Source of the DNA: a virus
IMG/VR virus record: IMGVR_UViG_3300045999_009829
Length of the DNA stretch: 64,000 bases
Reading direction: 5' to 3' (one strand)
In this document: in pieces, positions 3,346 to 40,163 of the stretch
Numbering within the stretch: position 1 is the first letter of the stretch
Layout of the letters: the number at the start of each line of letters is the position of its first letter
Notes under the pieces: generated by a model
Told to the model about the DNA's origin: nothing
The model's input: the letters and a program-made list of their open reading frames with translations, nothing else
The model's database searches: none
Translations under genes and position numbers: made by a program

Positions 3346-3587
3346 TCAGCCCTCTTGTAAATTCCGAGTACGTAGTTCTCTGCAGCATCCTCTACGTATT
3401 GGATACTTTTACCCTTAATCACCATGTAGTCAACAAGAGTCTCACCCTCATACAAGTCGATGACGTACGAAGAGCCTTCGTTGATGGACCAGACTACAGA
3501 GCGCCTGGATCCATCCGGACTTTGAAAACTGGATACGGAGACCTCTACATCAGACGTCATCATCTTGATCCTCCGGCATGATGTCAT
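3342..3587 (-). CDS. Hypothetical protein
   Basis: ORF between uvsX and gp41; C-terminus YVEDAAENYVLG; true start probably ~3563. Confidence 0.65.
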   Translation of the reverse strand: MTSCRRIKMMTSDVEVSVSSFQSPDGSRRSVVWSINEGSSYVIDLYEGETLVDYMVIKGKSIQYVEDAAENYVLGIYKRAE

Positions 3588-4599
3588 TCATGCCCAGGCT
3601 GTAGCGGCGCTGGATCCAGCCGGAGAAGTCAGTCTCGTCGAGCAGGGTCTTCCAGAAGTCACCGTTGTCGACGATGTCGGCTGCACGATAGTTCTTTGTG
3701 GCAATCTCACCGGTCTCCTGGTCAACACGGGCATACCAGCCCTGCTTTGGCTTGGTCATGAAGCCGCCCTCAAGTGCCAGATCGAGCAGACCAGACCACT
3801 TGTTGATGCCCGAGTCGTAGTTGACCGTAATGGGAATCTTGGACTTTTCCTTGACGTGGCGAGACTTTTCCACGTTGATGATGAAGTGGTAGCCCTTGAT
3901 CTCCTTGTCGTCCTTGTCCTGCTGACGGCCGATGATCCAGATGTTGTCGGCAGAGTAGTAGATGCCGGTACCGCCACTGACCACGGGCTTCGAGAACATC
4001 TCCTGCGTCATGTACACGTGGTTCACGACGACCATCGGAATGTCCTTGAGGGTCAGGTGAGGTGTGACCATGCGGAACAGAGACTTCAACTGCTTGGCTC
4101 GAGTCATGTCTGCCGCCGAACTCTGCTTTAGGGCATCCTCGACTTCCTTCTTCGAGGCCAAGTTGCCGACCGAGTCAACGATGATCATGACCTTGTCGTC
4201 ACGCTTCAGTTCCTGCAGCTGAGCCATCACGTCGAACTTTAGCTGCTCGATGTCGGTGATGGGCGTGTGGACCACGGACTCCATCGGGACGCCAAACGAC
4301 GAGAAGTAGGACTGAGGCGTGCCGAACTCCGAGTCATAGAACAGGATGATGCCGTCTGGGTGAGCCTTGAGGAAGGCGGCAGCCATGAGCAGAGAGAAGG
4401 CCGTCTTGAAGTGCTTGGACGGCGCCGCGAGTACCGTCAGACCCGGCGTGAGCCCGCCGTCAATGCGGCCAGACAGCGCCACGTTGATCATGGGGACTCG
4501 AGTCGGGATCATGTCCTTGCGGCCGTAGATCTTGGAGTCGGTGAGTGTAGCGGTGAAGTCTATGGTGCTGTTCTTGATCAGGCGTTCTTTGAGAGACAT
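3550..4599 (-). CDS. uvsX: RecA-like recombinase UvsX
   Basis: APSKHFKT, FYDSEFG, DSVGNLASKKE, SGGTGIYYSAD. Confidence 0.97.
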   Translation of the reverse strand: MSLKERLIKNSTIDFTATLTDSKIYGRKDMIPTRVPMINVALSGRIDGGLTPGLTVLAAPSKHFKTAFSLLMAAAFLKAHPDGIILFYDSEFGTPQSYFSSFGVPMESVVHTPITDIEQLKFDVMAQLQELKRDDKVMIIVDSVGNLASKKEVEDALKQSSAADMTRAKQLKSLFRMVTPHLTLKDIPMVVVNHVYMTQEMFSKPVVSGGTGIYYSADNIWIIGRQQDKDDKEIKGYHFIINVEKSRHVKEKSKIPITVNYDSGINKWSGLLDLALEGGFMTKPKQGWYARVDQETGEIATKNYRAADIVDNGDFWKTLLDETDFSGWIQRRYSLGMNDIMPEDQDDDV

Positions 4600-25631: not shown

Positions 25632-26150
25632 TTATTTTTTGGCATTCCTTGAGTCTGGATAGACGTAGGTCTCCAGGAACTGCTTCCTCTCGGACTCTGA
25701 GAGCACGGACCAGAACTGTCGGGTGCGCTTCAGGTTGAACTGCACCACTCGGGCCACGTCCTTGAGGACCTTCAGCTCCTTCTTCTCGGCATCGGACCGC
25801 TTGAGCCACCCACCCTCCTTCCAGCGCTTGCGCTTCTGCACAGAGTAGAACAGGTAGTCGTGCTGCATCTTCTTGTCGAGGTGGTAGTTCAGGTTCAGGA
25901 ACTCACCCGACGCAAACGTGTCCGGGAAGATGGTCATGGCTCGGTTGACCGTGTACGGGTCAAACTCGGATTGGGTGTCCTCAGCCAGTAGGTACTGCTT
26001 GCCGAAGTTGATGTCGTTGATGAAGTTGAATACGTTGAACTTCTTCTCGACTTCAACTTCGACTGGGGCTGCCTTGACCCTGCCGAAGAGAGTCGAATGA
26101 ACCTCGACCTCTTCCTTCGGTACTGCCTTCTTGGTCTTGATCATGCCCAC
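25632..26150 (-). CDS. 62: Clamp loader small subunit (gp62-like)
   Basis: YTVNRAM...LDKKMQHDYL...KRKRW; position between gp44 and regA. Confidence 0.85.
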   Translation of the reverse strand: MGMIKTKKAVPKEEVEVHSTLFGRVKAAPVEVEVEKKFNVFNFINDINFGKQYLLAEDTQSEFDPYTVNRAMTIFPDTFASGEFLNLNYHLDKKMQHDYLFYSVQKRKRWKEGGWLKRSDAEKKELKVLKDVARVVQFNLKRTRQFWSVLSESERKQFLETYVYPDSRNAKK

Positions 26151-27079
26151 TCGCAGCGCATCATCACCTCTACAAAGAAGGCGATGAGGTTGATCTCGTG
26201 GTCAGCCACGAATGCCGCCTTGTACTGGTAGTCTGCAATGATCACGATGAGCTCGGGGATGGACTTCTTACTGACCAGCTCAGACGCGTTCTCGTAGACC
26301 GAGCGGAACACGTTGACCTGCTCTTGGTCAGAGTTGTCGTGGACCCACTTGCGGATGGCGTCGAAGTCCTTCCGCTTGCACGCCTCGAGCACCTGCTTTA
26401 CCGTGAGGTCCTCGAACCGAGTCAGGATGCCAGAGTCGATAGAGCCCGTGGCGCTGTAGCGCTGCAGCTCGTTGAGGACTCGGCGCCAGTCTGGGAAGTG
26501 CTTCTGGATGACAGCAACGACCACAGAGCGCTCGTACTTGATGCCCTCCTTGTCCAGGATTGCCTCGGTGCGCTTCATGAACTGCGCCGCCAGCTTGGGC
26601 TTGCAGTCCTTGGGAACCACGAAGTCGATGACCGAGCACCGCGAGTGGAGCGGCTTGATGATCCTGTTCTTGTAGTTGCAGGTCAGGATGAAGCCGCAGT
26701 TCTTGGAGAACTCCTCCATGAAGTTGCGGAGCGCCGGCTGAGTGGAGTTCTGGTTGAGGTAGTCTGCCTCATCCAGGATCACGTACTTGCGGCCGCCCTG
26801 TAGAGAGACCGACGAAGCAAAGTTGAGGATCTCATTCCGGAGGGTGTCGATGTTGCCGTTCATCGAGCCGTTGATGATGATGTAGTCGCACCCGAGCTCC
26901 TCGAGCATGGCTCGGGCGACTGTAGTCTTGCCGACGCCTGCCGAACCAGCCAGGATCAGGTTCGGCACGTTCTTCTGGTCAACGAATGTCTGGAAAGTCT
27001 TCTTGAGGTCGGCGGGCAGGATGGTGTCTGCGATGGCCTTTGGGCGATAGCGCTCGCACCACAAAAACTGTTCAAGCAT
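26141..27079 (-). CDS. 44: Clamp loader large subunit (gp44)
   Basis: WCERYRP, GSAGVGKTT, DEAD, SRC. Confidence 0.97.
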   Translation of the reverse strand: MLEQFLWCERYRPKAIADTILPADLKKTFQTFVDQKNVPNLILAGSAGVGKTTVARAMLEELGCDYIIINGSMNGNIDTLRNEILNFASSVSLQGGRKYVILDEADYLNQNSTQPALRNFMEEFSKNCGFILTCNYKNRIIKPLHSRCSVIDFVVPKDCKPKLAAQFMKRTEAILDKEGIKYERSVVVAVIQKHFPDWRRVLNELQRYSATGSIDSGILTRFEDLTVKQVLEACKRKDFDAIRKWVHDNSDQEQVNVFRSVYENASELVSKKSIPELIVIIADYQYKAAFVADHEINLIAFFVEVMMRCEWA

Positions 27080-27753: not shown

Positions 27754-28128
27754 TCAGATCTTGAAGAGGCGATGGCGCTGAAGATTGGTCAGACCGTAGG
27801 GTTCACAATCTACCACGACCGTCTCGTTATAGGTATACTCAGCGTCAACCAGCTTGGCTGGAATGGTGGTGTAATCCCAGTCCTTATAGCGCTCGGTGAT
27901 AACCTTACCGGTGGCCATAGTCTTTCTGGTGTTGATACCGCGAACACGCGTGAAAACAACCTTGCCGTTATCGGGGTCCTTGAGGACGCCATCAAACCAG
28001 CCCGTGTTCTGATTGACACGCTTGTTGTACCCCATGGTCACATAAGCGACACGATCACCTGGATTGATCGTCTGTCCGACTGCATTTACAAAGGGCTCTG
28101 CGGAAAATTGGTTGTAGGGCTTACCCAT
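27754..28128 (-). CDS. Hypothetical protein
   Basis: 124-aa ORF with SD GGAG. Confidence 0.65.
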   Translation of the reverse strand: MGKPYNQFSAEPFVNAVGQTINPGDRVAYVTMGYNKRVNQNTGWFDGVLKDPDNGKVVFTRVRGINTRKTMATGKVITERYKDWDYTTIPAKLVDAEYTYNETVVVDCEPYGLTNLQRHRLFKI

Positions 28129-28226: not shown

Positions 28227-28880
28227 TCAGAAGGTGCTGGACTGCTCGATAGCGATCCAGTAGGTAGCCTCCACACCGGTAAACTGCGAGATGCCCTTCG
28301 ACGAGATCTGCACCTGGTAGTCGCCGTCGATGATCTTGATGTTCTCTGCACGGAAGACCGCACGGAAAGCAAGATCGGTGTCGCCGATGGCCACGCTGAA
28401 GGTGTCCGCAGAGGGATTCTTCACGTCGATGGCCTGCAGAGTCAGACTCGAGCCGTCACCGACAATGGCGAGCTCAGGAAGACCAAGGACACTCATGGCC
28501 TTGAGCACGTCCTGCATCGCCTTGTTGGTCAGGGAGCAGGTCACGTCGACCGAGGGGAGCTTGATGTCCTTCTCGGGCGGTGCCAGGATAACGGTCGGAT
28601 CGCTGTAGTGGTACGTGATCGAACCGCGAGCGCCGCTGATGACGGCAGAGTTGTCACCGAACTGAACGTCTGGATCATCGAACAGCGACAGAGCACTCAG
28701 AAAGCGACTGAGAGCATAGATCGGCACTTGGCGCTCGAACGTGTCAGGCACCGTGGCCTTAGCGAGGACCGTCTTGTTCGAGGCGATCGAAGCCAGGGTG
28801 TTACCTGGCTTGATCACGATGGACGGGTTGATAGTCGAGAAGTTCTTAAGAATGTGTAGTGTCTTGGCGGAAAGCTTCAC
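28227..28880 (-). CDS. 45: Sliding clamp (gp45)
   Basis: MKLSAKTLHILKNFSTINPSI...YWIAIE. Confidence 0.95.
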   Translation of the reverse strand: MKLSAKTLHILKNFSTINPSIVIKPGNTLASIASNKTVLAKATVPDTFERQVPIYALSRFLSALSLFDDPDVQFGDNSAVISGARGSITYHYSDPTVILAPPEKDIKLPSVDVTCSLTNKAMQDVLKAMSVLGLPELAIVGDGSSLTLQAIDVKNPSADTFSVAIGDTDLAFRAVFRAENIKIIDGDYQVQISSKGISQFTGVEATYWIAIEQSSTF

Positions 28881-28951: not shown

Positions 28952-29797
28952 TCACTTCTTCTTCTTGAGCATTCCAGTGTCGGCAGTAGCGGGGGCGCCG
29001 ATCTGAGCCAAGTCAATCAGTGACCCGCCGAAGATGTAAGAGCCGACATGCTGCAGCTTCATCCATGGGCAGTACCAGATCTTGCCCTCGATCTCGATAA
29101 GCTTCTGGCAGAACCAGTAGTCCTCAGACAGGTAGCGCTTCGACTTGGGATCAATTTCAGCCTGGAAGAACTGCATGATCTCACGGGTACCGTCGAAGTG
29201 CTCGGTGCGGACGTGGTCAGGCTTGTAGCTGTACTGGGGATAGGCTTGCTGGAACTTCTCGAAAGCGCTGCGGCGAGTCATCATGAAGCCCGTGCCGACC
29301 TCGGACACCTCGACTGGCTGGTCCACTCGGATAGAGCCAGAGCCCGACTTGGGGTTGAACACGAAGTCACCGACGTAGCGCTCGAGGACGTTGGGATCCT
29401 CATCTGCCATGCCCTTGTCGACTGCCAGCTTGATCTTCTCCCACGAGATGCACTTCTTGGGGTAGGGACCTGCGAGCACGTCGTACTCGGTGTCGTCGCC
29501 CTGTAGAGCAAGCATCGCCAGAACGTCACGGGGATCGAAGCCGATGTCAGAGTCGATGAACATGAGGTGGGTGCAGTTCGAGCGCATGAACTCGTCGACG
29601 ATGTAGTTGCGTGCACGAGTGATGAGCGACTCGTTGAACAGGAAGTAAGAGCGGAGCTCGACGCCGTGGTTGGTGCACATGGCGGTAAGGTCAGCGACTG
29701 ACTTCGTGAACATGCCGGCGCACTGACCGCCATACATCGGAACGCCTAGAAAGAGCTTGCGCTTGCGAAGTTCGTCGATGGAGATGGAGATTTCCAT
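28952..29797 (-). CDS. GT-A fold glycosyltransferase-like protein
   Basis: ESLITRARN, MFIDSDIGF (DxD), GTGFM, YLSEDYWFC. Confidence 0.75.
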   Translation of the reverse strand: MEISISIDELRKRKLFLGVPMYGGQCAGMFTKSVADLTAMCTNHGVELRSYFLFNESLITRARNYIVDEFMRSNCTHLMFIDSDIGFDPRDVLAMLALQGDDTEYDVLAGPYPKKCISWEKIKLAVDKGMADEDPNVLERYVGDFVFNPKSGSGSIRVDQPVEVSEVGTGFMMTRRSAFEKFQQAYPQYSYKPDHVRTEHFDGTREIMQFFQAEIDPKSKRYLSEDYWFCQKLIEIEGKIWYCPWMKLQHVGSYIFGGSLIDLAQIGAPATADTGMLKKKK

Positions 29798-30106
29798 TCA
29801 CTTGTCCTTTTCATGGTGTGTCATGTGGTGGTTCATGGCAAGCACGGTGTAGTGGAGGACCTTCATCAGATCGTCCTTGTTGTGTCCGTTCTTCTTGCCG
29901 TATCGGGATGCGTACTTGATGATGTTTCCGATGTAGAAGCCCTCGGAGTGCCCGGCTGAAATGATCAAGTCTTGAGCTTGAACCTTGTCGCCGTAGTGCG
30001 AGCCGTATGTCTTTCTGATGTACTGGTGCAGCTCGTCTAGGATGTGACCTTCGTTGTACTTGAACTTGATCACGTCCTCCTTGGGGTATTTATTCACGTC
30101 ATTCAT
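29798..30106 (-). CDS. DUF3310 / T7 gp1.7-like nucleotide-kinase-family protein
   Basis: SHY...GFYIGNIIKYASRYGKKNG...DLMKVLHY. Confidence 0.75.
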   Translation of the reverse strand: MNDVNKYPKEDVIKFKYNEGHILDELHQYIRKTYGSHYGDKVQAQDLIISAGHSEGFYIGNIIKYASRYGKKNGHNKDDLMKVLHYTVLAMNHHMTHHEKDK

Positions 30107-30113
30107 GGGGTCC

Positions 30114-30953
30114 TCACGTATTGCTGAACTTGATGTTCTGCTCTATCTCGCGCTTGTCCTTCTCGTAGGGTGCACGGTAGTTGTTGTTGGCTCGAATGGC
30201 TTCCTTGAGGACAGACATCTCAGAGCCAAGAGAGTTGGCAAATGCAACCAGGGCAGCCGTGTCCTTAGGGAAGCAAGCGCCGCCGAAGCCTCGCTTGCCG
30301 TCAAAGCCGGGGACGGTGGTGTGTGACCTGCCGACTCTATCATCAGCAGTGATGGCGCCGACCACCTTGCCGAAGTTACCGCCGTACGCGTTGACGGTAT
30401 CATAGAACTGGTTGAACCACAGAACCTTGGTGGCAAGGAAGCTGTTGATCCCGTACTTTACAAAGCTGGCGTCCACCGGAGTCATGTGATATGTAGGGCA
30501 CGGCTTGCACAGGCTGTAGTACTTGTAGAGGTACTCCAGGGCGGCGGTTGCCGATGGCTCGCCGCCGAACACGTGCATGAACGGGTTCACGAAGTCCTCG
30601 TTGGCGCTCTTCTCGGTGAGGAACTCCGGGTTGTAGACCATGCGATTGATCTTGTCGCCGCGGAAGAGCCTGTGGATGATGTTCGGCGTTACAGTCGACT
30701 TGATGATGATGTACCCGCTGACCTTCTCGAGCAGGTGCTTGACAACCGACTCGATGATGGATGAGTCGATCGACCCGTCCTCACCCATGGGCGTGGGCAC
30801 GCACACGAAGGTGAAGTCGATAGGCTTGTCCTCGAGATCCTTTACGGTCGTTCCCTGCTTGGGGTCAATGATGTGCTTGTTGCACATGATGTCAGGGAAT
30901 CCATAGTCAACAGCCTTGCCGACAAAGCCGTGACCTACAATTGCAATGTCCAT
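30114..30953 (-). CDS. ugd: UDP-glucose 6-dehydrogenase (short form)
   Basis: GHGFVG, CVPTP, IKSTV, NPEFL, KYGINSFLATK, GFGGACFPKD. Confidence 0.9.
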   Translation of the reverse strand: MDIAIVGHGFVGKAVDYGFPDIMCNKHIIDPKQGTTVKDLEDKPIDFTFVCVPTPMGEDGSIDSSIIESVVKHLLEKVSGYIIIKSTVTPNIIHRLFRGDKINRMVYNPEFLTEKSANEDFVNPFMHVFGGEPSATAALEYLYKYYSLCKPCPTYHMTPVDASFVKYGINSFLATKVLWFNQFYDTVNAYGGNFGKVVGAITADDRVGRSHTTVPGFDGKRGFGGACFPKDTAALVAFANSLGSEMSVLKEAIRANNNYRAPYEKDKREIEQNIKFSNT

Positions 30954-31907
30954 TCAGTTCACTCCATAATATGACTTGTACCACTCTGCAAATTTAGCCA
31001 CGCCCTCGGGGATGGATACGGACGGCTTCCAGCCGAGAGCCTGAAGCTTTGTGGTGTCCGACCAGGTCTCCAGGGTGTCCGCAGGGTGACGAGGTAGCAT
31101 GTTCTTCTTGAGCTCTCGACCGAAGTTTTTCTCGATCTCTGCAATGAAGTCCATGAGGTTGACCTGCTGACCACGACCGATGTTGAAGATCTCGTGCTTC
31201 GGGTTGTCGGTGATCATGGCACGGTCAATGATGATCTTGATGCCGGCGACGATGTCGTCCACGTACGTGAAGTCACGCTTCATGTCACCGTAGTTGAACA
31301 CGTCGACTGGTCGATCTTGAATTGCTGCCTCTGCAAACTGGAACAGAGCCATGTCAGGTCGACCGTATGGACCATAGACGGTGAAGAAGCGGAGACCGAT
31401 GGTCCGATCCAACTTTGAGGTCATGAACTGACACTCGTTGGACCGCTTGGTGTAGCCGTATGCATTCAGTTGGTGACCGGTGGGCTCGTCTTCCTTCCAA
31501 GGAAGCGGATTGCCCGCCATCACGCACGACGTAGAGGCATACACGACTGTATTTACACCGAGCGACTCACAGACCTCGATCAGGTTCTGAGTGCCGACAA
31601 TGTTGTTCTCGATGTACTCTAGCGTGTTGTTGTACGAGTGGCGGACACCGACCGACGCAGCAAGGTGCACGACTGCATCTGGCTTGTGAGCCTCGATGAA
31701 CCAGTTGAACGAGTCCTTCTTGCGGAGATCGGCTGTGACCACCGGCGCACCGAGTTGGTCCAGAATATGCGCTCGGTGCTTCTTGAGCCTCACGTCGTAG
31801 TAGGAACTGAAGTTGTCAAGTCCGACAACCTCGTGTCCAGCATCTACCAGAGCTCGTGTGAGGTGGAAGCCGATGAAGCCAGCGGCGCCGGTGATCAGGA
31901 TCTTCAT
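30954..31907 (-). CDS. NAD-dependent epimerase, UDP-glucuronate 4-epimerase type
   Basis: TGAAGFIG, YYDVRLK, YGYTK, LRFFTVYGPYGRPDMA, RDFTYVDDI. Confidence 0.9.
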   Translation of the reverse strand: MKILITGAAGFIGFHLTRALVDAGHEVVGLDNFSSYYDVRLKKHRAHILDQLGAPVVTADLRKKDSFNWFIEAHKPDAVVHLAASVGVRHSYNNTLEYIENNIVGTQNLIEVCESLGVNTVVYASTSCVMAGNPLPWKEDEPTGHQLNAYGYTKRSNECQFMTSKLDRTIGLRFFTVYGPYGRPDMALFQFAEAAIQDRPVDVFNYGDMKRDFTYVDDIVAGIKIIIDRAMITDNPKHEIFNIGRGQQVNLMDFIAEIEKNFGRELKKNMLPRHPADTLETWSDTTKLQALGWKPSVSIPEGVAKFAEWYKSYYGVN

Positions 31908-32857
31908 CAGTAGTTCTTCCGACCGCTGGGGTAGCGATCCGCAGAGTACTCCATGTCCTCATAGGCTTCAGGAGTGTCCCACTGACGGATGAGCTTCATG
32001 CCGTAGTTGTCAGTCTTGTTCAAGATCGTCACGTCCTTCTTGAGGATCAGTGGATTCAGTCGAGCCTGCTGACCGTGCTTGTTGACGATCGCCTCTAGAT
32101 CCACATGATGATGCACTCTACCATACCTTTCCTGTAAAGTCACCACATCTGGATGCATCTCGACAAGCATCTGAGACTTCTTGAGTGAGGCGTCCTCTGC
32201 GTAGTTATTGTAGATCTCAGAGGTGTTGCCGCCCTTGACCGTGCCAGTTCTTGCCTTGCCACACAAGAAGGAGTAGATCAGCATGGTGCAGAGACCCTCC
32301 TTGAGCACTCGGATGGACAGGTCGACGTCCTCGTTGTACCGACCACGCCACTTGTGAGGGCAGTCGTTGTCGATCAGGAAGCAAGACATGATCCGCGTGT
32401 TCAGGATGTATGGCGGATATGGGTAGTCGTCAACACAGAAGAACTTGTACTGGAGACCGGCGAGGGCTACATTCTCGAAGCGATCCACAAAGTCTTCTGT
32501 GGCACGGAAGCAGGCAGAGCCACGCTCGATCCGATAGCGCTTGTTCTGGTGAAAGCGCCAGAACTCGAAGATGTTGTCGTCCATGAGCCAGTGGCGCTTG
32601 AAGCCGTTAGCCTGCGAGTGTTCCCAGCACCAGTTGCGGGCGGGACCAGAGCCCTTGCCGTGGTTGCTGAACGGTAGAGTCAGCACCTTCTTGGGGTCAA
32701 TGACCGCAGCATAGTTTTCGTACTCCTGCGGCTCGACCGCAATGTAGTACGGGACGCCCATCCGCTCTAGAGCTCGAGAAGTGTGACGAGTCTCCCACCG
32801 ACCCTTGCTGATGATGTAGATGGGGTAGCGAGTGGTGAAGGCATCACTCATCTTCAA
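31907..32857 (-). CDS. GREB1/TET-associated-type GT-A glycosyltransferase (putative DNA base modifier)
   Basis: YPIYIISKGR, VEPQE, ARN, HWLMDDNI, YNEDVDLS, KGGNT. Confidence 0.75.
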   Translation of the reverse strand: MKMSDAFTTRYPIYIISKGRWETRHTSRALERMGVPYYIAVEPQEYENYAAVIDPKKVLTLPFSNHGKGSGPARNWCWEHSQANGFKRHWLMDDNIFEFWRFHQNKRYRIERGSACFRATEDFVDRFENVALAGLQYKFFCVDDYPYPPYILNTRIMSCFLIDNDCPHKWRGRYNEDVDLSIRVLKEGLCTMLIYSFLCGKARTGTVKGGNTSEIYNNYAEDASLKKSQMLVEMHPDVVTLQERYGRVHHHVDLEAIVNKHGQQARLNPLILKKDVTILNKTDNYGMKLIRQWDTPEAYEDMEYSADRYPSGRKNY

Positions 32858-33113
32858 CGATCCTGTTCATGTTGTTCTTCTCACGACCCTTGTCTGGGTA
32901 CCAGACCACGGCAGTCTTCTCGGTCAGGCTGTATCCAAGTAGTTCGGCAAACGCCTGACGGTCTTCCATGGTCTTGAACTTCACCTTGATCTGCTTGTAT
33001 GGAGACAGGTCACCGGTGTTGAACGCCGGCATGCCCGCCGCATACCACTGTAGGTATGGGTTGCGCCACTCGTTCTGTAGGTCTTCTACTGTAGATGTAT
33101 TTCCAAATAGCAT
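32844..33113 (-). CDS. Small glycosyltransferase-associated protein (paralog A)
   Basis: GMPAF...IKVKFKTMEDRQAFAELLG...TAVVWYP. Confidence 0.7.
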   Translation of the reverse strand: MLFGNTSTVEDLQNEWRNPYLQWYAAGMPAFNTGDLSPYKQIKVKFKTMEDRQAFAELLGYSLTEKTAVVWYPDKGREKNNMNRIVEDE

Positions 33114-33114
33114 G

Positions 33115-33468
33115 TCAGTCTCCCATGAATCCTAGGATGCCGTCATCGGTTTCCTTGGAGAACACAAGCACCGAGGTCTTGGGTCCGATGGGCTGTCCGA
33201 TGGCTTTCATGAACTCGTTGAGTTCACCCTGACACGTGAAGTTCACGTACAGGTTCTGCCAGTCTTCCGGAAACTCTGGGTCAATTGGCTTCGGCTTGAT
33301 GTAGGGCTTGTGCTCTTCTTGCTCGCCAAGAAACGAAGACAGACCCGTTGGGGTTGTCTCCTTGGCTTTATAACCCACTAGGTCTTCATAGTCAACTGAA
33401 GTATCGCGGACGTTTGTCACAAGTTCATCTCCAAGTAGATAGGGTATACCTGTTGAATTGGTCAACAA
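33115..33468 (-). CDS. Small glycosyltransferase-associated protein (paralog B)
   Basis: LYVNFTCQGELNEFMKAIGQPIGPKTSVLVF; start uncertain. Confidence 0.65.
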   Translation of the reverse strand: MLTNSTGIPYLLGDELVTNVRDTSVDYEDLVGYKAKETTPTGLSSFLGEQEEHKPYIKPKPIDPEFPEDWQNLYVNFTCQGELNEFMKAIGQPIGPKTSVLVFSKETDDGILGFMGD

Positions 33469-33886
33469 TCAATGAATCCGAGATCGTGTCAAGCAGTCGA
33501 GCATTCTCTTTCTTAAAGAGGTGCATCGTTCGGCCGTCTCGAGTGCGAAGTGATCGTGTCTCCCGCTTGTCCTTGGGAAAATCGTACAGGTTGACCACGT
33601 TCCCGTTGTATTTAGACGGCGTCTCGACGAAGATCAAGATGTCGACGTCACGGCACTTGGCGATCTGTCCTGGTTTGACGGTGAACGCGTTTTCCTTGTG
33701 CCACAGCTGTTGAGTCTTTACCTCACACGTGTGCTTTCCTAGGCCTATGACCATGTCCTTCTTCTGGTCAAATAGGTCAATGGACTCCTCCACATGGAGG
33801 CCTAGGTTACGAAAGTAGCGAGCTACCAGTCTCTCACCAAGGTCGCCTGTCTTGACCTTCATCTGATCTGCGTCTAGCACCGTCAT
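33425..33886 (-). CDS. PD-(D/E)xK nuclease-like protein
   Basis: GDLGERLV...KDM...CEVKT. Confidence 0.7.
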   Translation of the reverse strand: MTVLDADQMKVKTGDLGERLVARYFRNLGLHVEESIDLFDQKKDMVIGLGKHTCEVKTQQLWHKENAFTVKPGQIAKCRDVDILIFVETPSKYNGNVVNLYDFPKDKRETRSLRTRDGRTMHLFKKENARLLDTISDSLIVDQFNRYTLSTWR

Positions 33887-34347
33887 GTCCTCAGATAGGT
33901 GTGGATCTTTCTGATCTGATCAAGACGAACCTCAAAGTCGTTGAGCTGTCTTGTCTTACCAGATGGATGGTACAACTTTAGATGGGGAAAGTCAACCACT
34001 TGTAAAGCTTTGCTCACAAAGCCGCCAAGTGCAATCACCTTCTTCTTGTAGAAGGGAAGAAGTCTCTTCCTGAGAGAGGTGAGATCCACCAGCTTCAAGT
34101 CTGGCGGTGCATTGACCTCGTGGGGTATGACGTTCTGGAAGTCGAACTCATAGCACCGTGCCGCATGCATCCAGTCGATGACTGTCTGGACGGTGTCCTG
34201 CTTGTTGTACTTGCTGCTTCGCTCCTCCACCGTCTTAGTGGAGGGACAGAAGCCGACCACGATCACGCCGTCACTGAAAGCGTGTCGTGGGTCGATCATC
34301 TTCATGTACGCTACAGAAGCCTCTCGAGTATAAAGAGACTCGTGCAC
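33883..34347 (-). CDS. Uracil-DNA-glycosylase-fold protein
   Basis: VVGFCPS, VIALGGFVSKAL, LYHPSG. Confidence 0.65.
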   Translation of the reverse strand: MHESLYTREASVAYMKMIDPRHAFSDGVIVVGFCPSTKTVEERSSKYNKQDTVQTVIDWMHAARCYEFDFQNVIPHEVNAPPDLKLVDLTSLRKRLLPFYKKKVIALGGFVSKALQVVDFPHLKLYHPSGKTRQLNDFEVRLDQIRKIHTYLRT

Positions 34348-34358
34348 GGTAGTTCTCC

Positions 34359-34733
34359 TTAGCTGAAAACGGCGCCCTTGGTATCGGGAGGCGTCCAGCC
34401 CTCGGGTTTCAGGATCTTTCCGTCCTCACGGCTGATCGGCTTACCGTCAACTAGCTTTGCCATGTTGGACCGGTGGACCTCAGCAAACACTCGATCAAGT
34501 GGAATGCCGTAGGAGACCGCCGTGCCGCACGCAATGTAGATGATGTCGGCAAGTGCATCAGCAATCTCTACGATGTCGTTCTCCCACTCCGCGTCGAGGT
34601 ACTCATTAACCTCTTCACGCAGCAGATTTACCCTGAGAGTACGTTCCTCAATGGGAGGCAACTCAGGCTTTGTGCCCACGTTGAGACCGAAGGCGACCTG
34701 GAAGTCCTTGACGTCGTTGTACATATCAGTCAT
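34359..34733 (-). CDS. MazG/PRA-PH-like NTP pyrophosphohydrolase
   Basis: LREEVNE, IADALADIIY, EVHRSNMAK, DGKILKP. Confidence 0.9.
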   Translation of the reverse strand: MTDMYNDVKDFQVAFGLNVGTKPELPPIEERTLRVNLLREEVNEYLDAEWENDIVEIADALADIIYIACGTAVSYGIPLDRVFAEVHRSNMAKLVDGKPISREDGKILKPEGWTPPDTKGAVFS

Positions 34734-34944
34734 TGAGAATGTTCCCACGCACCAGGCAGATTCCCGAGTTGTTGTTTGGGATCCAAGTGCCACCTGCATC
34801 GATACACTTATTCATCGAAGCATAGTAATGTCGGTTGCCATTCATGGTGCCGATCGTAACGCCGATAATCAGAATCGACATAATGATTGTACCGCAGATA
34901 AAGAACAGGACTTCTGTCCCGTGTTCCCGTAAAAGTTCCTTCAT
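34726..34944 (-). CDS. Small membrane protein
   Basis: One TM helix; KCIDAGGTW. Confidence 0.6.
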   Translation of the reverse strand: MKELLREHGTEVLFFICGTIIMSILIIGVTIGTMNGNRHYYASMNKCIDAGGTWIPNNNSGICLVRGNILND

Positions 34945-34945
34945 A

Positions 34946-35482
34946 TCACATGATCCATTCAGGGGGTTGACGATTGGTCCAACTGTGCATCCGAGCCTTG
35001 CCTACCTTGTAGTAGTTTCGGTAGTTGGTCACCGGATCCTCACTGATGATGTACTGCTTGTCCATAGCGCAGGGCATCTCAGTCATGTCGTAGTCCCTCA
35101 GATTCTGGGGAGGGGACTGTAGGCAATAAGCAAGGTCAAAGCACTTATGTACCTTGCCGCCGTAGCGGTGAGAGTACTCGTCGTTGAGTGCATAGAAGTG
35201 CTCCACTAGCCAGAGGTAGTTCTCTACAGAAGTTCGGGTCCAGACCGCGGACGGATGGTTCATGTGCGTCGCTTGATACACGATGCTGTCACGGCCGTCG
35301 TCGAGAATGAACCGCTTGGCATTCCGTCCAGTCTTGGTCTTACCGAGAGTCATGCGGCCGTCAAGCATCCGATGGGCGGTCGACAAGAGCTGTGCAGTTT
35401 CCAAAATCATTTTTACTACATGACGGTCGACCATCCACTGTGCAGCTTGGCGAGGACAGCGGTCAATATAGAAAATGTTAAT
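34946..35482 (-). CDS. Pyrimidine-dimer DNA glycosylase (DenV-like family), probable ATT start
   Basis: (M)NIFYID...DRHVVKMILETAQLLST...HMNHPS...YRNYY. Confidence 0.85.
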   Translation of the reverse strand: MNIFYIDRCPRQAAQWMVDRHVVKMILETAQLLSTAHRMLDGRMTLGKTKTGRNAKRFILDDGRDSIVYQATHMNHPSAVWTRTSVENYLWLVEHFYALNDEYSHRYGGKVHKCFDLAYCLQSPPQNLRDYDMTEMPCAMDKQYIISEDPVTNYRNYYKVGKARMHSWTNRQPPEWIM

Positions 35483-36191
35483 TTTTTGTCTCCTTTGAGC
35501 GACAATTGTCAAAGTGATAGCGTTTCATCGCAAACGCACCCCCACTTTTACCACAATGTGGACAACTTGTCAACTCTTGTTTGAAGCCTTTCTCTCTTAC
35601 AGGAGAGTAGGCCTCATTCCAACCTTTTGCTTGTCTAAGAAGGCCTTCAGGTGATATTGACTCTCTTGATCTTTTACCATGTTCTTTAAGCTCTTCGGCT
35701 GTCATACTAGAAAATCTTTTGGCTTGAGCTTCACTTTTTAACCTTCTGGAATGCTCACTTTCCTTCATACCTCTTTTGCTTTTGTTTGCAGATTCGGTCA
35801 ACATCCGTTTTTGTTCCATGGTCATCCTTGATCTTTGCTCCTTAAGACTATTAGACAGCTTAAGAAGTGTTTCAGGTGAACATTCACGATCCACACAACC
35901 TTCTCCACCAGCCGTCATGTTATAGCCGAACTCGTACGAGTTTGAATTGTAGTGCCTTATCCACTTTTGCTCTAACTCATAGACATGTTCTGGCGCACAT
36001 GTTTCCAATAGACTGACATCAAAGTTTTCCACACCGTGCTTTTTCATTGATTGATACAGACGACGACCTTCAAGATTGGGCCCTCTGCTATTGCGAATGT
36101 GTTCCTTAAATCTGGATTCTATTGAGTGTTTTGTTATGCCGACATACTTTTTGCTGTTCAGTCGATTTTCTATCAGATAAACAAACGGCAT
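35478..36191 (-). mobile_element. Free-standing GIY-YIG homing endonuclease with NUMOD-like repeats and a C-terminal Zn knuckle
   Basis: FVYLIEN...YVGIT...RFKEH...GYNMTAGGEG; CPHCGK; AT-rich. Confidence 0.88.
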
Positions 36192-36365: not shown

Positions 36366-36868
36366 CGCTTCCACTTCCTGAATGCTTGAGCTCGATGGAT
36401 CGGGTTGGCCTTCGAGTAGAAGTGCTCGCCGTTTAGGAAGTCCATGCAGTGCTGGAAAGTCCTAGCGGTTAGACCCGTGAAGGTCTCCGTCCTGGTCTGC
36501 CCGTTCGGCGTAGAGAAGCGGACCTTGACGTGCTGAGGGCGCTTGATCTTTACAAGCAGACCTGGATACGACATGGAGGTTTCCTCCAGCCTTATCTGCT
36601 CCTCGCTGGGCATCACGATCCTAGGATTGAAGCAGACAAAGTTCTCGGGTGCTCCACGCATTGCAAACACGCGAAGATTGATCCCAACCTGAGGTGCAGC
36701 AAGGCATACGCCGTTGTAGTCGTACATCGTCTTGACCAGTCTCTGAGCTAGATCAAGTGGGTCAAGCGGAGAGGATTGAAAGTTGAACTGTTCACAGATT
36801 GCCAGCTTCGCTAATTGACCTGGCCCTAGTATCGGCATGTTGTTCTCCATTCTATTGAACCTCTTCAA
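36362..36868 (-). CDS. def: Peptide deformylase homologue with inactivated catalytic motifs
   Basis: GVCLAAPQVG (cf. GxGLAAxQ), ETSMSYPG (cf. EGCLS), QHCMDFLNG (cf. QHExDHLxG). Confidence 0.85.
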   Translation of the reverse strand: MKRFNRMENNMPILGPGQLAKLAICEQFNFQSSPLDPLDLAQRLVKTMYDYNGVCLAAPQVGINLRVFAMRGAPENFVCFNPRIVMPSEEQIRLEETSMSYPGLLVKIKRPQHVKVRFSTPNGQTRTETFTGLTARTFQHCMDFLNGEHFYSKANPIHRAQAFRKWKR

Positions 36869-38567
36869 GTCTGCTGAAGTTCTTGTGCTTCACGAACCGG
36901 ATGGTGTTGGTGAACTTGTCGTGTAGATTATCCCTGTGAGAGATGATGAACACGTTGGACTCCCTGCTGAGTGCTTGCAGGATCTTCAGTAGATCATCTG
37001 CGGCATTACCGTCAAGGCTCGAGTCGAACACCTCGTCGAGGATGAGCAGGTTGGTGTTCAACGAGTTCCTGAGCTTGGCGACTGCCCTCCACGTGAACAG
37101 GATCGCCAGGTCGATCTTCTGCTTCTCGCCCTCGCTGAAGGACGCGTAGGAGAACTCGTCACGGTGCCTGGACTTGATGGTCTCGTTGAACTGCTCGTCC
37201 AGGTGGAACTCCACGAACAGGTCAAACTCGCTCAAGTACTTATTGATGAGCTTGTTGATGATCGGCACGTACTGGTTGACGATCTTGGTCTTGATGCCGC
37301 CGTCCTTGAGCAATGCGGATGCCGCAGCGAGCACCTGACGGTCATCCTGGAGCTCGTTGTAGAGGCTGGTCAATCCGTTAAGCTGGGTCTCCAGGTCTGC
37401 AACCTTGACGTCGCTGGTCTCGTCCTTGTCACGCTGGGCATCCTCGATCTCTTTCTGGATGGACTTGATCTGGTCCTCGTACATCCGTGCACGTAGAGTC
37501 TCGTGTGATATCTGAGTGATGATCTCGTCGTACTTCTTGTCTAGAGCCAGGAGCTCGTTGAGTTCGGCGTGCAGTTGCTCGTGTTTCTCCGCCAGCTTCT
37601 GCAGACCGGCTTCAATCTCCTTGGTCTCCGTCTCCCGCTGAGAGACTATCTGACAGCTGAATTCTCGGTCGATGTTCTGTCGGCAAGTCGGACAGCTGTC
37701 GTGGTCAGTGAAGAACTTGATGTCCTTGACGAGCATGGAGGTCTTTGCCTCCATCTGTGCCCGGAGGGCTCGCATCTTCTCAAGCTTTAATTTCAGAGCA
37801 GTCGACTGCCCTGCATCGGTGTTCAGGTCATCCGCTTGCTTCCTGAGAGTCTGCTTTGCGTTCAGGATCTCAGCGACCTTGGACTCTAGACTCTCCAGGG
37901 TCACCGTCTTTTCCCTGATGAACTGCTCGCTCTTGGACCGAACCTCGTTGAGGTGAGCCTTGAGCATCTTGATCTTTTCAGACACCAGCTTCTGGTCAGT
38001 CGAGTTCTGGAAGATCTGGTCCTGGTTCTCCTGCACACGGGACTTCAGCAGCGTGTTCATGACCGTAAAGACCTGCAGGTCTAGCAGGTCCTCGATGATC
38101 GAGCGCCTCTGTCCCGCCGGCAACTGCATGAACGGAACAAAGGATGCGGACCCAAGCACCACTACCTGACAGAAGGACTTGTAGTTAGTCTTTAGGATCT
38201 TTCGCTCCAGGAGCTCCTGGTAGTCCCTCATCTCTGCTTCTTGGTTAAGCAGTACGTCGTTGCAGAAGACCTCAAACACGTTCGGCTTGAGGCCTCGGCG
38301 GATCATGTAGTGGTTCCTGCCGATCATGAACTCCAGCTCGACCAGTGCGTCACGGTTGGTGATGCTGTTGATTAGCTGGGGCTTGTTGATGTTACGGAAG
38401 GGCTTGCCGAAGAGGGCAAACGTCAGGGCGTCAAGGATCGTTGACTTGCCGGCGCCGTTCTCGCCCACGATCAGGGTCGTGCCCTGAGTCGACAAGTCTA
38501 GCTCAGTGAACGCGTTTCCGGTGGAGAGTAGGTTCTTCCACCTGATCTTGCCAAATGCAATTCCCAT
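36852..38567 (-). CDS. 46: Recombination endonuclease ATPase subunit (gp46, Rad50/SbcC-like)
   Basis: GENGAGKST, CPTC hook, FSEGEK, LDEVFD. Confidence 0.97.
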   Translation of the reverse strand: MGIAFGKIRWKNLLSTGNAFTELDLSTQGTTLIVGENGAGKSTILDALTFALFGKPFRNINKPQLINSITNRDALVELEFMIGRNHYMIRRGLKPNVFEVFCNDVLLNQEAEMRDYQELLERKILKTNYKSFCQVVVLGSASFVPFMQLPAGQRRSIIEDLLDLQVFTVMNTLLKSRVQENQDQIFQNSTDQKLVSEKIKMLKAHLNEVRSKSEQFIREKTVTLESLESKVAEILNAKQTLRKQADDLNTDAGQSTALKLKLEKMRALRAQMEAKTSMLVKDIKFFTDHDSCPTCRQNIDREFSCQIVSQRETETKEIEAGLQKLAEKHEQLHAELNELLALDKKYDEIITQISHETLRARMYEDQIKSIQKEIEDAQRDKDETSDVKVADLETQLNGLTSLYNELQDDRQVLAAASALLKDGGIKTKIVNQYVPIINKLINKYLSEFDLFVEFHLDEQFNETIKSRHRDEFSYASFSEGEKQKIDLAILFTWRAVAKLRNSLNTNLLILDEVFDSSLDGNAADDLLKILQALSRESNVFIISHRDNLHDKFTNTIRFVKHKNFSRLEEVQ

Positions 38568-39644: not shown

Positions 39645-40163
39645 CTACTCCAGAAACTTCTCTACTCCGGAGACTTTATCCTGCTTTTTGTTCTTTGTCA
39701 ACTTACTTTCGAAGCTATGGATGATCTCGTTGGACAGGTCGTTGTTCTTGATCTGAAATGATGCGCCCGTGTCACCGTACTGCATGTCGTCCATCTCACC
39801 TGACAGGTAGGTGTGCTGGATGTTCTTGTGCTTCACGTACTGTTCTCGCTTTTCACTGCTGATTCGGCGAATGAAGGCGTTCCATGCAATCTGGGTGAAG
39901 TAGGCAAACGGGTTGTTGGTCCTGGCGGGATCAAACAGGTGCACAGCCTTGATGCAGTTTTCGATGCCGTCGGACACCATCTCATCCCGGAATGAATAGC
40001 CGACAAAGTTGGGCTTGGTCGAGAGTCGCTCACAGATCTTGAAGATGCACACGCCTAGGTACTCTGGGATCCTGGCGTTGGGGTCCTCCTTGAGCTTCTC
40101 CCTGTAAGCAACAATGGCTTCATAGAAATCTCGGTTGTTGACATAGTGTCGCTTTGCTGCCAT
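39645..40163 (-). CDS. 55: Late-transcription sigma factor (gp55)
   Basis: HYVNN, PNFVGYSFRDEMVSDGIENC, NPFAYFTQI. Confidence 0.96.
   Translation of the reverse strand: MAAKRHYVNNRDFYEAIVAYREKLKEDPNARIPEYLGVCIFKICERLSTKPNFVGYSFRDEMVSDGIENCIKAVHLFDPARTNNPFAYFTQIAWNAFIRRISSEKREQYVKHKNIQHTYLSGEMDDMQYGDTGASFQIKNNDLSNEIIHSFESKLTKNKKQDKVSGVEKFLE

Follow-up and report, generated by a model that had tools for sequence, protein, structure and literature searches.

The window analyzed here, a stretch of 64,000 nucleotides from an environmental T4-like phage (IMG/VR virus record IMGVR_UViG_3300045999_009829), contains ten ORFs at positions 28952-34799, all of them real and all on the minus strand. Neighboring ORFs touch or overlap, and the tightly packed, co-oriented run lies between genes 46 and 45 as originally predicted, with a gp46-like SMC_N protein (36852-38567) on one flank and the gp45 sliding clamp (28227-28880, minus strand; PF09116, E = 4e-13), gp44 (26141-27079), and gp62 (25632-26150) on the other. 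From the gene 46 side, the run encodes a MazG-like pyrophosphohydrolase, two orphan proteins of 154 and 153 residues (u154 and u153), two small paralogs (u117 and u89), a TAGT-family glycosyltransferase, an SDR, a short homolog of nucleotide-sugar 6-dehydrogenases (mini-Ugd), a DUF3310 protein, and a second glycosyltransferase (GT2). Nine of the family assignments of the original prediction hold, and the PD-(D/E)xK assignment of u153 stands at the motif level only.

The glycosyltransferase, its N-domain, and a clamp-type tail

The gene at 31907-32851 encodes the catalytic domain of a TAGT-family (GREB1/JGT-like) GT-A enzyme. The protein matches PF20691 along the entire profile (positions 1-205 of 205; E = 8e-49), scoring 166.7 bits where the cut-off is 27.5, and also matches phrog_842 (E = 3e-50). 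Residues R20, D93-D94 (within DDN), and E176-D177 are invariant across 26 TAGT homologs, and the R, DD(D), and ED active-site motifs described for TAGT/GREB1-like GT-A enzymes are thereby all present. The full-length profile match and the invariant catalytic motifs confirm that this is a GREB1/TAGT-type enzyme.

The start of the TAGT gene overlaps the stop of u89 (32844-33113) at the junction ATGAGTGA. In seven related loci (L031, L045, L050, L058, L059, L063, and L081) the two are fused in frame as a single protein of 405-411 residues, and the same fusion is found in gp209 of phage PTm1 (BLASTP, 2e-8). Judging by these fusions, u89 is the N-terminal domain of the TAGT enzyme, encoded here as a separate gene. 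The domain has no Pfam model. Its fusions in the databases are of the types u89+TAGT, ParB_N+u89, and ParB_N+u89+GT32-like, and in small phages the ParB_N-fused form lies directly upstream of the TAGT and terminase genes.

The neighboring u117 (33115-33468) is a paralog of the u89 family by hhalign (97.3%, E = 2e-11), as predicted for the two small proteins; pairwise BLASTP detected no similarity between u117 and u89. An N-terminal acidic motif, DTSxDYDDLVGY, is invariant in u117. The protein ends in a hydrophobic-acidic tail (DDGILGFMGD in the window; family consensus NGLLxFFGD) that resembles the end of the DNA polymerase, gp43, of the same phage (TLEDFFG) and is kept in 29 of 30 distinct u117 homologs. 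When the C-termini of 594 ORFs were searched with this pattern, the only matches were the polymerase, gp55, u117, and one antisense ORF. In T4, gp43, gp55, and gp33 bind gp45 through similar and interchangeable hydrophobic-acidic C-termini (PMC2988020), and the T4 alpha-glucosyltransferase (alpha-GT) also binds gp45 (Sommer 2004; confirmed in PMC13216743). From the likeness of the tails, we propose that u117 is a putative adaptor that docks on the gp45 sliding clamp.

Sugar-acid donor enzymes and accessory genes

The SDR (30954-31907; PF01370, E = 2e-50) has as its three best solved relatives 5u4q (1.7e-79), the Bacillus cereus UDP-GlcA 4-epimerase BcUGAepi (6zl6, 1e-47), and MoeE5 (3e-34). 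Aligned to BcUGAepi, it conserves T126, S127, Y149, K153, T178, and R185, and S128 is replaced by Cys. R185 of BcUGAepi binds the carboxylate of UDP-GalA. The protein reaches no NCBIfam equivalog cut-off. With UDP-GlcA 4-epimerases as the closest characterized relatives and the carboxylate-holding Arg retained, the SDR is of the UDP-glucuronate 4-epimerase type, in agreement with the prediction.

Mini-Ugd (30114-30953) had been called a UDP-glucose dehydrogenase. It matches both PF03721 and PF00984 and retains the GGACFPKD catalytic Cys motif as well as NPEFL, so the family and the catalytic residues stand. The protein is nevertheless not a canonical three-domain enzyme, as a Pfam search found no PF03720, the C-terminal UDP-binding domain of the UGDH/GMD family. 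In addition, its N-domain is about 50 residues shorter. In an alignment with the 444-residue Ugd 3vtf, mini-Ugd covers residues 98-317 of the latter and ends at the position aligned to 317. All 26 distinct homologs in the related loci are 274-311 residues long, and nearly all of the ∼460 cluster representatives at E ≤ 1e-30 fall between 250 and 310 residues. The two-domain truncation is therefore clade-wide and conserved. One clade member, P0257, is fused to a sugar-1-phosphate nucleotidyltransferase (NTP_transferase, PF00483), and this fusion to an NDP-sugar pyrophosphorylase, like the neighboring SDR of the UGA-epimerase type, suggests that mini-Ugd may act on nucleotide sugars. Taken together, the sequences support a TAGT-family enzyme coupled to partners apparently capable of producing UDP-GlcA and UDP-GalA.

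The MazG-like NTP pyrophosphohydrolase (34359-34733) is secure (PF01503, E = 5e-19; phrog_671, E = 8e-45); its ORF is open up to 34799, and the ATG at 34733 is the likely start. For u154 (33883-34347), there is no PHROG or PDB sequence match and no Pfam match even at an E value of 5. Its model is poor (pLDDT 61), and the UDG superfamily fills most of the top Foldseek and VIA ranks: the top matches include SMUG1 in Foldseek (E = 5e-3), and VIA returns the Thermotoga maritima UDG with Z 7.7 (rmsd 3.8, 129 aligned residues) and further matches with Z 6.8, 6.7, and 6.4, all below 8. The UDG superfamily is marked by motif A (GxxPx) and motif B (HPS), and in the u154 family G[FL]CPS and YHPSG are invariant. 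For a model this weak, the structural ranking and the conserved motifs lend the predicted UDG fold moderate support at best. The next protein, u153 (33425-33886), has E18, D44, and E55-V-K57 invariant in 29 homologs, a PD-(D/E)xK-like motif set; it gave no Pfam or PDB sequence match, and the predicted nuclease is a candidate at the motif level.

The 102-residue DUF3310 protein (29798-30106) matches PF11753 (E = 4e-11) and phrog_480 (E = 4e-28). The kinase-like label once attached to it derives only from a 60-residue segment common to longer kinase-annotated proteins. GT2 (28952-29797; phrog_1574, E = 6e-60) was modeled with AlphaFold (pLDDT 79), and Foldseek matches include STIV A197 (1e-6), the LH3 GT domain, mimivirus R699, Mnn9, ppGalNAcT, and PBCV-1 A64R. 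At E ≤ 1e-3 the model has 84 PDB matches, and all of those among the matches listed are GT-A enzymes; because the TM-scores are about 0.4, the assignment holds at the fold level only. D82-S-D84 is invariant, and a SEDY motif and a Lys-rich tail are present. At that level, the model, the Foldseek matches, and the DSD motif confirm a GT-A fold for the second glycosyltransferase.

A five-gene cassette in a lineage backbone

The ten genes had been read as a single module. Synteny across 80 related contigs and isolates revealed instead an inserted cassette of five genes, u117, u89, TAGT, SDR, and mini-Ugd, within a lineage backbone that already had GT2 next to gp45. GT2 had been counted as part of the module, but it is found at the corresponding site in phages DLP_6 (63.5% identity) and Cr30 (58.5%), neither of which carries TAGT, SDR, or mini-Ugd; GT2 is therefore a backbone gene of the lineage. 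The DUF3310 gene is kept in most, but not all, relatives. The best explanation of the arrangement is that the cassette was inserted into a T4-like replication block, with PDF/DenV-like genes on one side and DUF3310, GT2, and gp45 on the other.

Three further genes of the run, those for MazG, u154, and u153, are accessory and variable. In the replication blocks of DLP_6 and Cr30, MazG lies elsewhere, after regA, and in relatives L003, L009, and L062 its place is taken by a phrog_5658 pyrophosphatase. Relatives thus often carry a pyrophosphatase immediately upstream of the cassette, but it is of two different types and MazG is peripheral. The u154 protein is present in only 4 of the 80 loci and u153 in about 12. 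In relatives, the variable slot houses nucleotide-metabolism genes, i.e., dCMP deaminase, pyrophosphatases, and an exonuclease. The donor genes vary as well: some relatives have an SDR of another type (24-27% identity) or lack mini-Ugd, while TAGT stays 70-89% identical. In phage C48C1, an SDR and mini-Ugd pair (56% and 47% identity) is found in the replication block without any TAGT, and pairing with TAGT is therefore not obligatory.

Acceptor, mechanism, and known systems

A hydroxymethyl-pyrimidine glycosylation system is expected to carry an acceptor-making enzyme in the same genome, and the original prediction placed a hydroxymethylase or TET outside the window. The search covered the phage's own record (G000, 108 kb, about 63% complete), a relative (G001, 170 kb, 77% complete), and 40-44 further records, among them five complete small phages (13-37 kb) whose TAGT is 52-55% identical. 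ThyA-type hydroxymethylases (PF00303) gave 0 matches in G000, G001, and the 40-44 further records, including the five complete phages, and the control was positive in phages 65, PTm1, and Kuja. Tet_JBP (PF12851) likewise gave 0 matches in G000, G001, and 40 other records, including the five complete phages; this absence is weaker evidence because no control genome passed the cut-off. C5-methyltransferases were not found in the five complete small phages with TAGT. The only thymidylate-synthase-type enzyme found was ThyX, the presence of which implies ordinary dTMP synthesis. The predicted acceptor-making enzyme was thus not found in G000, at about 63% completeness, or in its relatives.

Our current hypothesis builds on what was established directly, namely the families, the catalytic motifs, the domain split and fusions, the paralogy, the synteny, and the similarity and conservation of the tail. 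Mini-Ugd would convert host UDP-glucose to UDP-glucuronate, which the SDR would epimerize to UDP-galacturonate. The TAGT catalytic domain, together with the detached u89, would then transfer hexuronate to phage DNA after replication, while u117, through its polymerase-like tail, would tether the enzyme to gp45 in the wake of the fork. The backbone GT2 may or may not extend the glycan, and the MazG, UDG-fold, and PD-(D/E)xK-like accessories may deplete canonical dNTP or discriminate unmodified DNA. The enzyme substrates, the clamp binding, and the DNA target are all inferred, and we put this tentative reading at somewhat below an even chance. The u89 split, the clamp-type tail of u117, the ParB_N fusions, and family membership favor DNA as the probable target. 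It speaks against the mechanism that mini-Ugd has no counterpart of the domain with which every solved relative binds UDP, and against DNA stands the search result above, with ThyX present and no hydroxymethyl-pyrimidine-making enzyme found.

A further argument against DNA is that GREB1, a TAGT relative, is a protein O-GlcNAc transferase (PMC7968844). TAGT could in the same way glycosylate a protein or other non-DNA acceptor, e.g., a replisome or virion protein, in which case the clamp-like tail and the location would only mirror early expression or a target protein that binds the clamp. In line with this, the complete small phages with a related TAGT have no hydroxymethylase, TET, or C5-methyltransferase that we could find, the TAGT gene of Vibrio phage 1.076.O lies between portal and head-morphogenesis genes, and most of the structural neighbors found for the adjacent GT2 are GT-A enzymes that glycosylate proteins. 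However, the characterized phage members of the TAGT family act on DNA (PMC13390438, PMC13216743), the fusion of the N-domain to ParB_N sits where phages usually have ParB-methylase genes, and the replication block is where the cassette is found, with nucleotide-metabolism genes interleaved in relatives. We consider a non-DNA acceptor rather unlikely.

It is quite improbable that the SDR and mini-Ugd are an auxiliary metabolic unit that boosts UDP-GlcA/UDP-GalA for virion or cell-surface glycans, with TAGT unlinked and using another donor such as UDP-glucose. The pair without TAGT in C48C1 and the turnover of SDR type and mini-Ugd beside a conserved TAGT would fit such a unit, but that turnover is also expected from an arms race over DNA sugars. 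Moreover, the SDR follows TAGT immediately, translationally packed, in the T4-like relatives that cover the slot, and in most reconstituted subclass II clusters the GT relied on its adjacent epimerase (10.1101/2023.12.21.572611). A pre-replicative route would follow the gp56-gp42-gp1 logic of T4: MazG would remove the canonical dNTP, an unrecognized enzyme would modify the dNMP, the DUF3310 protein would help re-phosphorylation, and the GTs would act after incorporation, the hydroxymethylase being a new family or a repurposed ThyX. Three observations point this way: many relatives carry a pyrophosphatase, of either type, immediately upstream of the cassette; some have a dCMP deaminase or MazZ-like domain inside the slot; and ThyX is the sole thymidylate-synthase-type enzyme found. 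On the other hand, none of the genes conserved with the cassette is a candidate for the modifying enzyme, u153 and u154 occur only here and there, and the DUF3310 kinase label is weak. We know of no ThyX with hydroxymethylase activity, and we regard this route as very improbable.

As for hexuronate transfer to DNA, a claim that the modification is distinct from anything known is overstated. Hexuronic-acid 5hmC has been produced in E. coli from a metavirome GT-A and epimerase pair, contig 57 (Pyle, Lund, O'Toole, Saleh 2023, bioRxiv 10.1101/2023.12.21.572611). In the subclass II clusters of that study, a GT-A and a sugar epimerase lie beside a C5-methyltransferase and a 5mYOX/TET, and GT matches next to gp45/clamp genes were remarked upon. 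What the cassette has in common with these clusters is an SDR epimerase encoded right next to a JGT-like GT-A that carries the R, DD(D), and ED motifs. It differs in that no methyltransferase, TET, or ThyA-type partner was found in the phage, a Ugd-type dehydrogenase is added, the N-domain of the GT is a separate gene accompanied by a second, clamp-tailed paralog, and the carrier is a T4-like myovirus.

The TAGT family also includes the T2/T6 beta-glucosyl-HMC-alpha-glucosyltransferase, which glucosylates glucosyl-hmC DNA (PMC13390438; PMC13216743). This enzyme and that of the cassette share Pfam TAGT PF20691, the GT-A fold, a phage origin, and action on DNA after replication, which for the cassette is the inferred target. 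The T6 enzyme adds glucose to glucosyl-hmC made by gp42 and alpha-GT, whereas the cassette phage is without these partners and its likely donor is a uronic acid; tblastn found no link between the cassette TAGT and the T2/T6 enzyme at E ≤ 1e-5. Like T4 alpha-GT, whose gene also lies among genes 45-47 and 55, the cassette would couple a DNA sugar transferase to the sliding clamp, and modification would thereby trail the fork. Unlike the cassette enzyme, alpha-GT is a GT-B enzyme that itself binds gp45, while in the cassette the polymerase-like tail is on a separate small putative adaptor, a paralog of the N-domain of the GT. The trypanosome base-J glucosyltransferase (JGT) and human GREB1 belong to the same GT-A superfamily clade as TAGT and are O-glycosyltransferases on a hydroxyl group, but JGT depends on JBP for its hmU, the target of GREB1 is a protein, and both lack the u89 domain as far as tested. 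As in RB69 and Mosigvirus, which make arabinosyl-hmC, a T4-like phage would swap glucose for another sugar and encode donor synthesis; those phages use a different, neutral sugar and different GTs, and they have the gp42 hydroxymethylase. New among these systems are the u89 split, the clamp-type tail of u117, and the ParB_N fusions of the same domain.

Gene context of the glycosyltransferase cassette

The window belongs to an IMG/VR virus record of 107,845 bp, estimated to be 63% complete, and the region studied herein lies within a T4-like phage's replication block. The gene order is a gp46-like protein (36852-38567), a peptide deformylase (PDF), a Seg-type GIY-YIG gene, a DenV-like gene, the ten genes of interest, gp45, gp44, and gp62. 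As originally predicted, the ten genes form one co-oriented run, with 10/10 on the minus strand and adjacent or overlapping. They encode MazG (34359-34733; PF01503, E 5e-19), four small proteins named by their length in residues (u154, 33883-34347; u153, 33425-33886; u117, 33115-33468; u89, 32844-33113), the GT-A glycosyltransferase TAGT (31907-32851; PF20691, E 8e-49), a UDP-glucuronate 4-epimerase-type SDR (30954-31907; PF01370, E 2e-50), a two-domain UDP-glucose dehydrogenase homolog termed mini-Ugd (30114-30953; PF03721 and PF00984), a DUF3310 protein (29798-30106; PF11753, E 4e-11), and a second GT-A protein, GT2 (28952-29797; phrog_1574, E 6e-60). Neither Pfam nor PHROG gave a match for u154, u153, u117, or u89. 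GenBank phages gave zero megablast matches to the region, and a Pfam search to E 5 with the ORF at 27754-28128 was likewise empty.

Two genes upstream of the run deserve a brief description. The DenV-like protein (188 aa, 34946-35512, minus strand) matches Pyr_excise (DenV) weakly (E 3.5e-3) and phrog_624, annotated "DNA binding protein", strongly; close relatives keep it ahead of their cassettes. The GIY-YIG gene between the PDF and DenV-like genes (35478-36191, minus strand) was considered as a T4 EndoII-like discriminator and ruled out, as it belongs to the Seg-type homing endonucleases (phrog_314, E 4e-33). Since nearly all relatives are without it, the gene is probably a mobile element.

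The locus was compared with 80 IMG/VR contigs carrying TAGT relatives of 39-91% identity. The T4-like relatives share the order gp46, PDF, u117, u89, TAGT, a variable slot, GT2, gp45, gp44, and gp62. In relatives that cover the slot, its first gene is an SDR, which is either of the UDP-glucuronate epimerase type (59-74% identical) or of another type (22-27% identical). Other genes that can occupy the slot encode mini-Ugd, a second TAGT paralog, a dCMP deaminase, an exonuclease resembling Rv2179c, a MazZ-like domain, or DUF3310. GT2 likewise precedes gp45 at this position in two isolates, Stenotrophomonas phage DLP_6 (63.5% identity) and, with 58.5% identity, Caulobacter phage Cr30; phages of Sinorhizobium, Rhizobium, and Ochrobactrum carry homologs of 45-51% identity. 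TAGT was not found in any of these GT2-bearing phages, and the replication blocks of DLP_6 and Cr30 have neither SDR nor mini-Ugd. GT2 is thus a backbone gene of the lineage, and the ten-gene run is a cassette (u117, u89, TAGT, SDR, and mini-Ugd) set within a backbone (DUF3310, GT2, and gp45). GT2 is itself a GT-A enzyme by its AlphaFold model (pLDDT 79), with invariant DSD and SEDY motifs and no sequence match in the PDB; an NCBIfam search gave no match for GT2 or TAGT.

The remaining genes of the run are accessory. Of the 80 contigs, 4 have u154, about 12 have u153, and about 10 have MazG, with a pyrophosphatase of another type at the MazG position in some relatives. Such sporadic occurrence of u154 and u153 means that the conserved enzyme cannot depend on either. 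The AlphaFold model of u154 is weak (pLDDT 61), and with it the top Foldseek matches belong to the UDG superfamily (SMUG1, E 5e-3; UdgX, family 4, and MUG), which also ranks on top by VIA, a method independent of Foldseek (Z 7.7, 6.8, 6.7, and 6.4, from the same weak model). Its invariant motifs are G[FL]CPS and YHPSG, and u153 has the invariant residues E18, D44, and E55-x-K57. For both proteins, Pfam searches to E 5 and profile searches against PDB sequences gave no match.

Nucleotide-sugar enzymes

Among solved structures, the SDR matches 5u4q (1.7e-79) best, then the UDP-glucuronic acid 4-epimerase of Bacillus cereus, 6zl6 (1e-47), and MoeE5. When aligned to 6zl6, the equivalents of T126, S127, Y149, K153, T178, and R185 are all kept, the last of which grips the UDP-GalA carboxylate (PMC12338863). 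The predicted label of UDP-glucuronate-4-epimerase type therefore stands. NCBIfam gave an equivalog-level assignment for none of the SDRs, including the alternative type of the relatives.

The assignment of a UDP-glucose dehydrogenase required revision. The domains PF03721 and PF00984 and the catalytic Cys motif are present, but the protein is non-canonical and lacks the UDP-binding C-terminal domain; its alignment is limited to residues 98-317 of a 444-residue Ugd, within which NPEFL and the Cys motif GGACFPKD are retained. A truncation artifact was ruled out, because homologs are equally short: all 26 distinct ones in related contigs are 274-311 aa, and a search of 1.8 billion cluster representatives gave about 460 relatives at E<=1e-30, the best 150 of which are nearly all 250-310 aa. 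The short length is a property of the clade. One member (P0257) is fused to a sugar-1-phosphate nucleotidyltransferase, which places the clade among putative enzymes of nucleotide sugars, a class worth attention. In another variant (P0300), an intein with a LAGLIDADG domain interrupts the protein. An SDR and mini-Ugd pair (56% and 47% identity) is also found in the Kyanoviridae isolate phage C48C1 (OQ984149, 7018-8918), flanked by uvsX and a 314-aa gene annotated "primase" (Pfam: none), with a Dam methylase adjoining; neither TAGT nor another glycosyltransferase was recognized near this pair.

The u89/u117 domain and the clamp-type tail of u117

The protein u89 is the TAGT enzyme's N-terminal domain, encoded separately. 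Seven related contigs encode the two fused in frame (405-411 aa), as does Tenacibaculum phage PTm1 (BLASTP 2e-8), and matching N-terminal extensions of TAGT are present in phages 65 and Kuja. In the window, the u89 stop overlaps the TAGT start, as ATGAGTGA. A single frameshifted gene was ruled out because most relatives keep the split, with an ATG that overlaps the stop.

u117 is a paralog of u89 (profile-profile 97.3%, E 2e-11), a kinship visible only profile to profile, as BLASTP between the two gave zero signal. A single ORF in one related locus (L055) matches both. Profile searches of longer proteins revealed three architectures of the u89 domain, namely u89 with TAGT, ParB_N with u89 (many proteins of about 210-250 aa), and ParB_N with u89 and a GT32/TcdA-like GT-A domain, the last seen once; P0033 is among these ParB_N fusions. 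In locus L068, a ParB_N-u89 gene (3309-3962) lies immediately before the TAGT and terminase genes. Pfam has no model for the domain, and sequence searches gave no solved relative (best PDB match E 0.039, unrelated). The ParB_N fusions suggest that this new small domain serves generally as an adaptor that joins GT-A enzymes to DNA-tracking proteins. Before its u89-like fold, in the N-terminal part, u117 also has another short invariant motif, DTSxDYDDLVGY; in L055 this motif is fused to a u89-type protein without the FF tail.

The u117 family ends in NGLLxFFGD, with ...GILGFMGD in the window copy. As internal references, the phage's own DNA polymerase (4882-7398, minus strand) ends in ...NTLEDFFG, those of relatives end in ...TLEDFFG, ...TIEDFFT, or ...TLEDFFS, and the gp55-like late sigma factor (39645-40163, minus strand; Sigma70_r2, E 7e-6) ends in ...SGVEKFLE; the tails of these two proteins are of the clamp-binding kind expected for them. 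When the record's 594 ORFs of 50 aa or more were scanned with a loose C-terminal pattern, only four matched, which are the polymerase, u117, the gp55-like factor, and one antisense ORF. Among distinct u117 homologs, the pattern holds in 29/30. A strict pattern recovered mostly polymerases, u117 proteins, and a 235-aa family among background ORFs. Given this tail, and given the binding of T4 alpha-glucosyltransferase to gp45 (Sommer 2004; confirmed in PMC13216743), we propose that u117 may act as a clamp adaptor for the TAGT enzyme. A complex prediction of gp45 with u117, run without controls, gave no answer (score 0.09) and has no bearing on whether the two bind. The cassette provides a testable model in which a clamp-tailed adaptor would deliver a DNA sugar transferase to newly made DNA.

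The 235-aa family corresponds to a 230-235-aa protein encoded just upstream of u117/u89-TAGT in several relatives (L023:8679-9383, L032:577-1269, L036:9002-9709, and L042:8241-8945) and missing from the phage's own genome. Its N-terminus looks GIY-YIG-like by eye (YVYGY...GKGxGNR..SH), and it ends in a clamp-type tail (...FIDDFFS), which recalls T4 EndoII-type host-DNA nucleases; Pfam gave no match and PHROG only a weak one, to phrog_5356.

The acceptor and comparison with known systems

TAGT-type enzymes are O-glycosyltransferases. The substrate of a characterized phage member is glucosyl-hmC (PMC13390438, PMC13216743), and the original prediction noted that no hydroxymethylase or TET to make the acceptor lies in the window. 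Neither was found in the 108 kb record. PF00303, which covers thymidylate synthase and dCMP hydroxymethylase, is absent from this record, from a relative of 170 kb (77% complete), and from a further 44 records, including five complete phages of 13-37 kb with TAGT 52-55% identical; in phages 65, PTm1, and Kuja, the same search did recover genes of ThyA type. Tet_JBP had zero matches everywhere searched, a weak absence since no control genome reached the model cut-off, and C5-methyltransferases are absent from all five complete small phages. ThyX, encoded upstream of the window (G000:C1:26432-27019) and likewise in relatives G001 and G004, is the sole thymidylate-synthase-type enzyme found. PTm1 (NC_049340.1) has an apparently split regular ThyA and a divergent ThyA-like frame (123231-123866; E 1.5e-10, one in-frame TAA), which may be a candidate hydroxymethylase of that phage.

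Since no source of a hydroxymethyl base was found, the target could be DNA with another acceptor, or protein. The reading we favor, tentatively and at somewhat less than an even chance, is clamp-coupled, post-replicative hexuronosylation of DNA on a putative acceptor. A protein or other non-DNA acceptor has a precedent in GREB1, which acts on protein (PMC7968844), and is possible, if on the unlikely side. A pre-replicative pathway with an unrecognized modifying enzyme appears very improbable. The sugar-nucleotide genes might instead form a unit uncoupled from TAGT, which, with an SDR heading the slot next to TAGT in the relatives that cover it, we consider quite doubtful. The original observation of the gene run is confirmed, and its interpretation as DNA hypermodification is supported in part.

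A bolder form of clamp-coupled hexuronosylation, which we regard as unlikely, is that a clamp-tethered glycosyltransferase puts uronic acid on DNA without a hydroxymethyl-pyrimidine, by new acceptor chemistry or acceptor synthesis, with the u89/u117 domain as the targeting element that couples the GT-A enzyme either to gp45, by way of a polymerase-like tail, or to a ParB-type N-domain, as in small phages. The question of the acceptor is a general one, as "solitary" TAGT is found in 288/753 phage genomes (PMC13216743), and it asks what the substrate of many such enzymes is when neither hydroxymethylase nor TET is encoded. DNA sugar coats decide the fate of phages against restriction, CRISPR, and glycosylase defenses, and an anionic uronic-acid coat in abundant environmental T4-like phages, if true, would broaden this picture.

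Uronic acid on DNA is not new in principle, as Pyle et al. reconstituted metavirome clusters with a JGT-like GT-A beside an epimerase, two of which gave hexuronic-acid 5hmC; those authors also noted GT hits beside clamp genes (10.1101/2023.12.21.572611). In contrast to those clusters, the locus described here has no known acceptor-making enzyme found with it and supplies its own dehydrogenase, of an unusual two-domain type. Its glycosyltransferase N-domain is, moreover, split off and accompanied by a clamp-tailed paralog, and in small phages this N-domain is linked to ParB_N.
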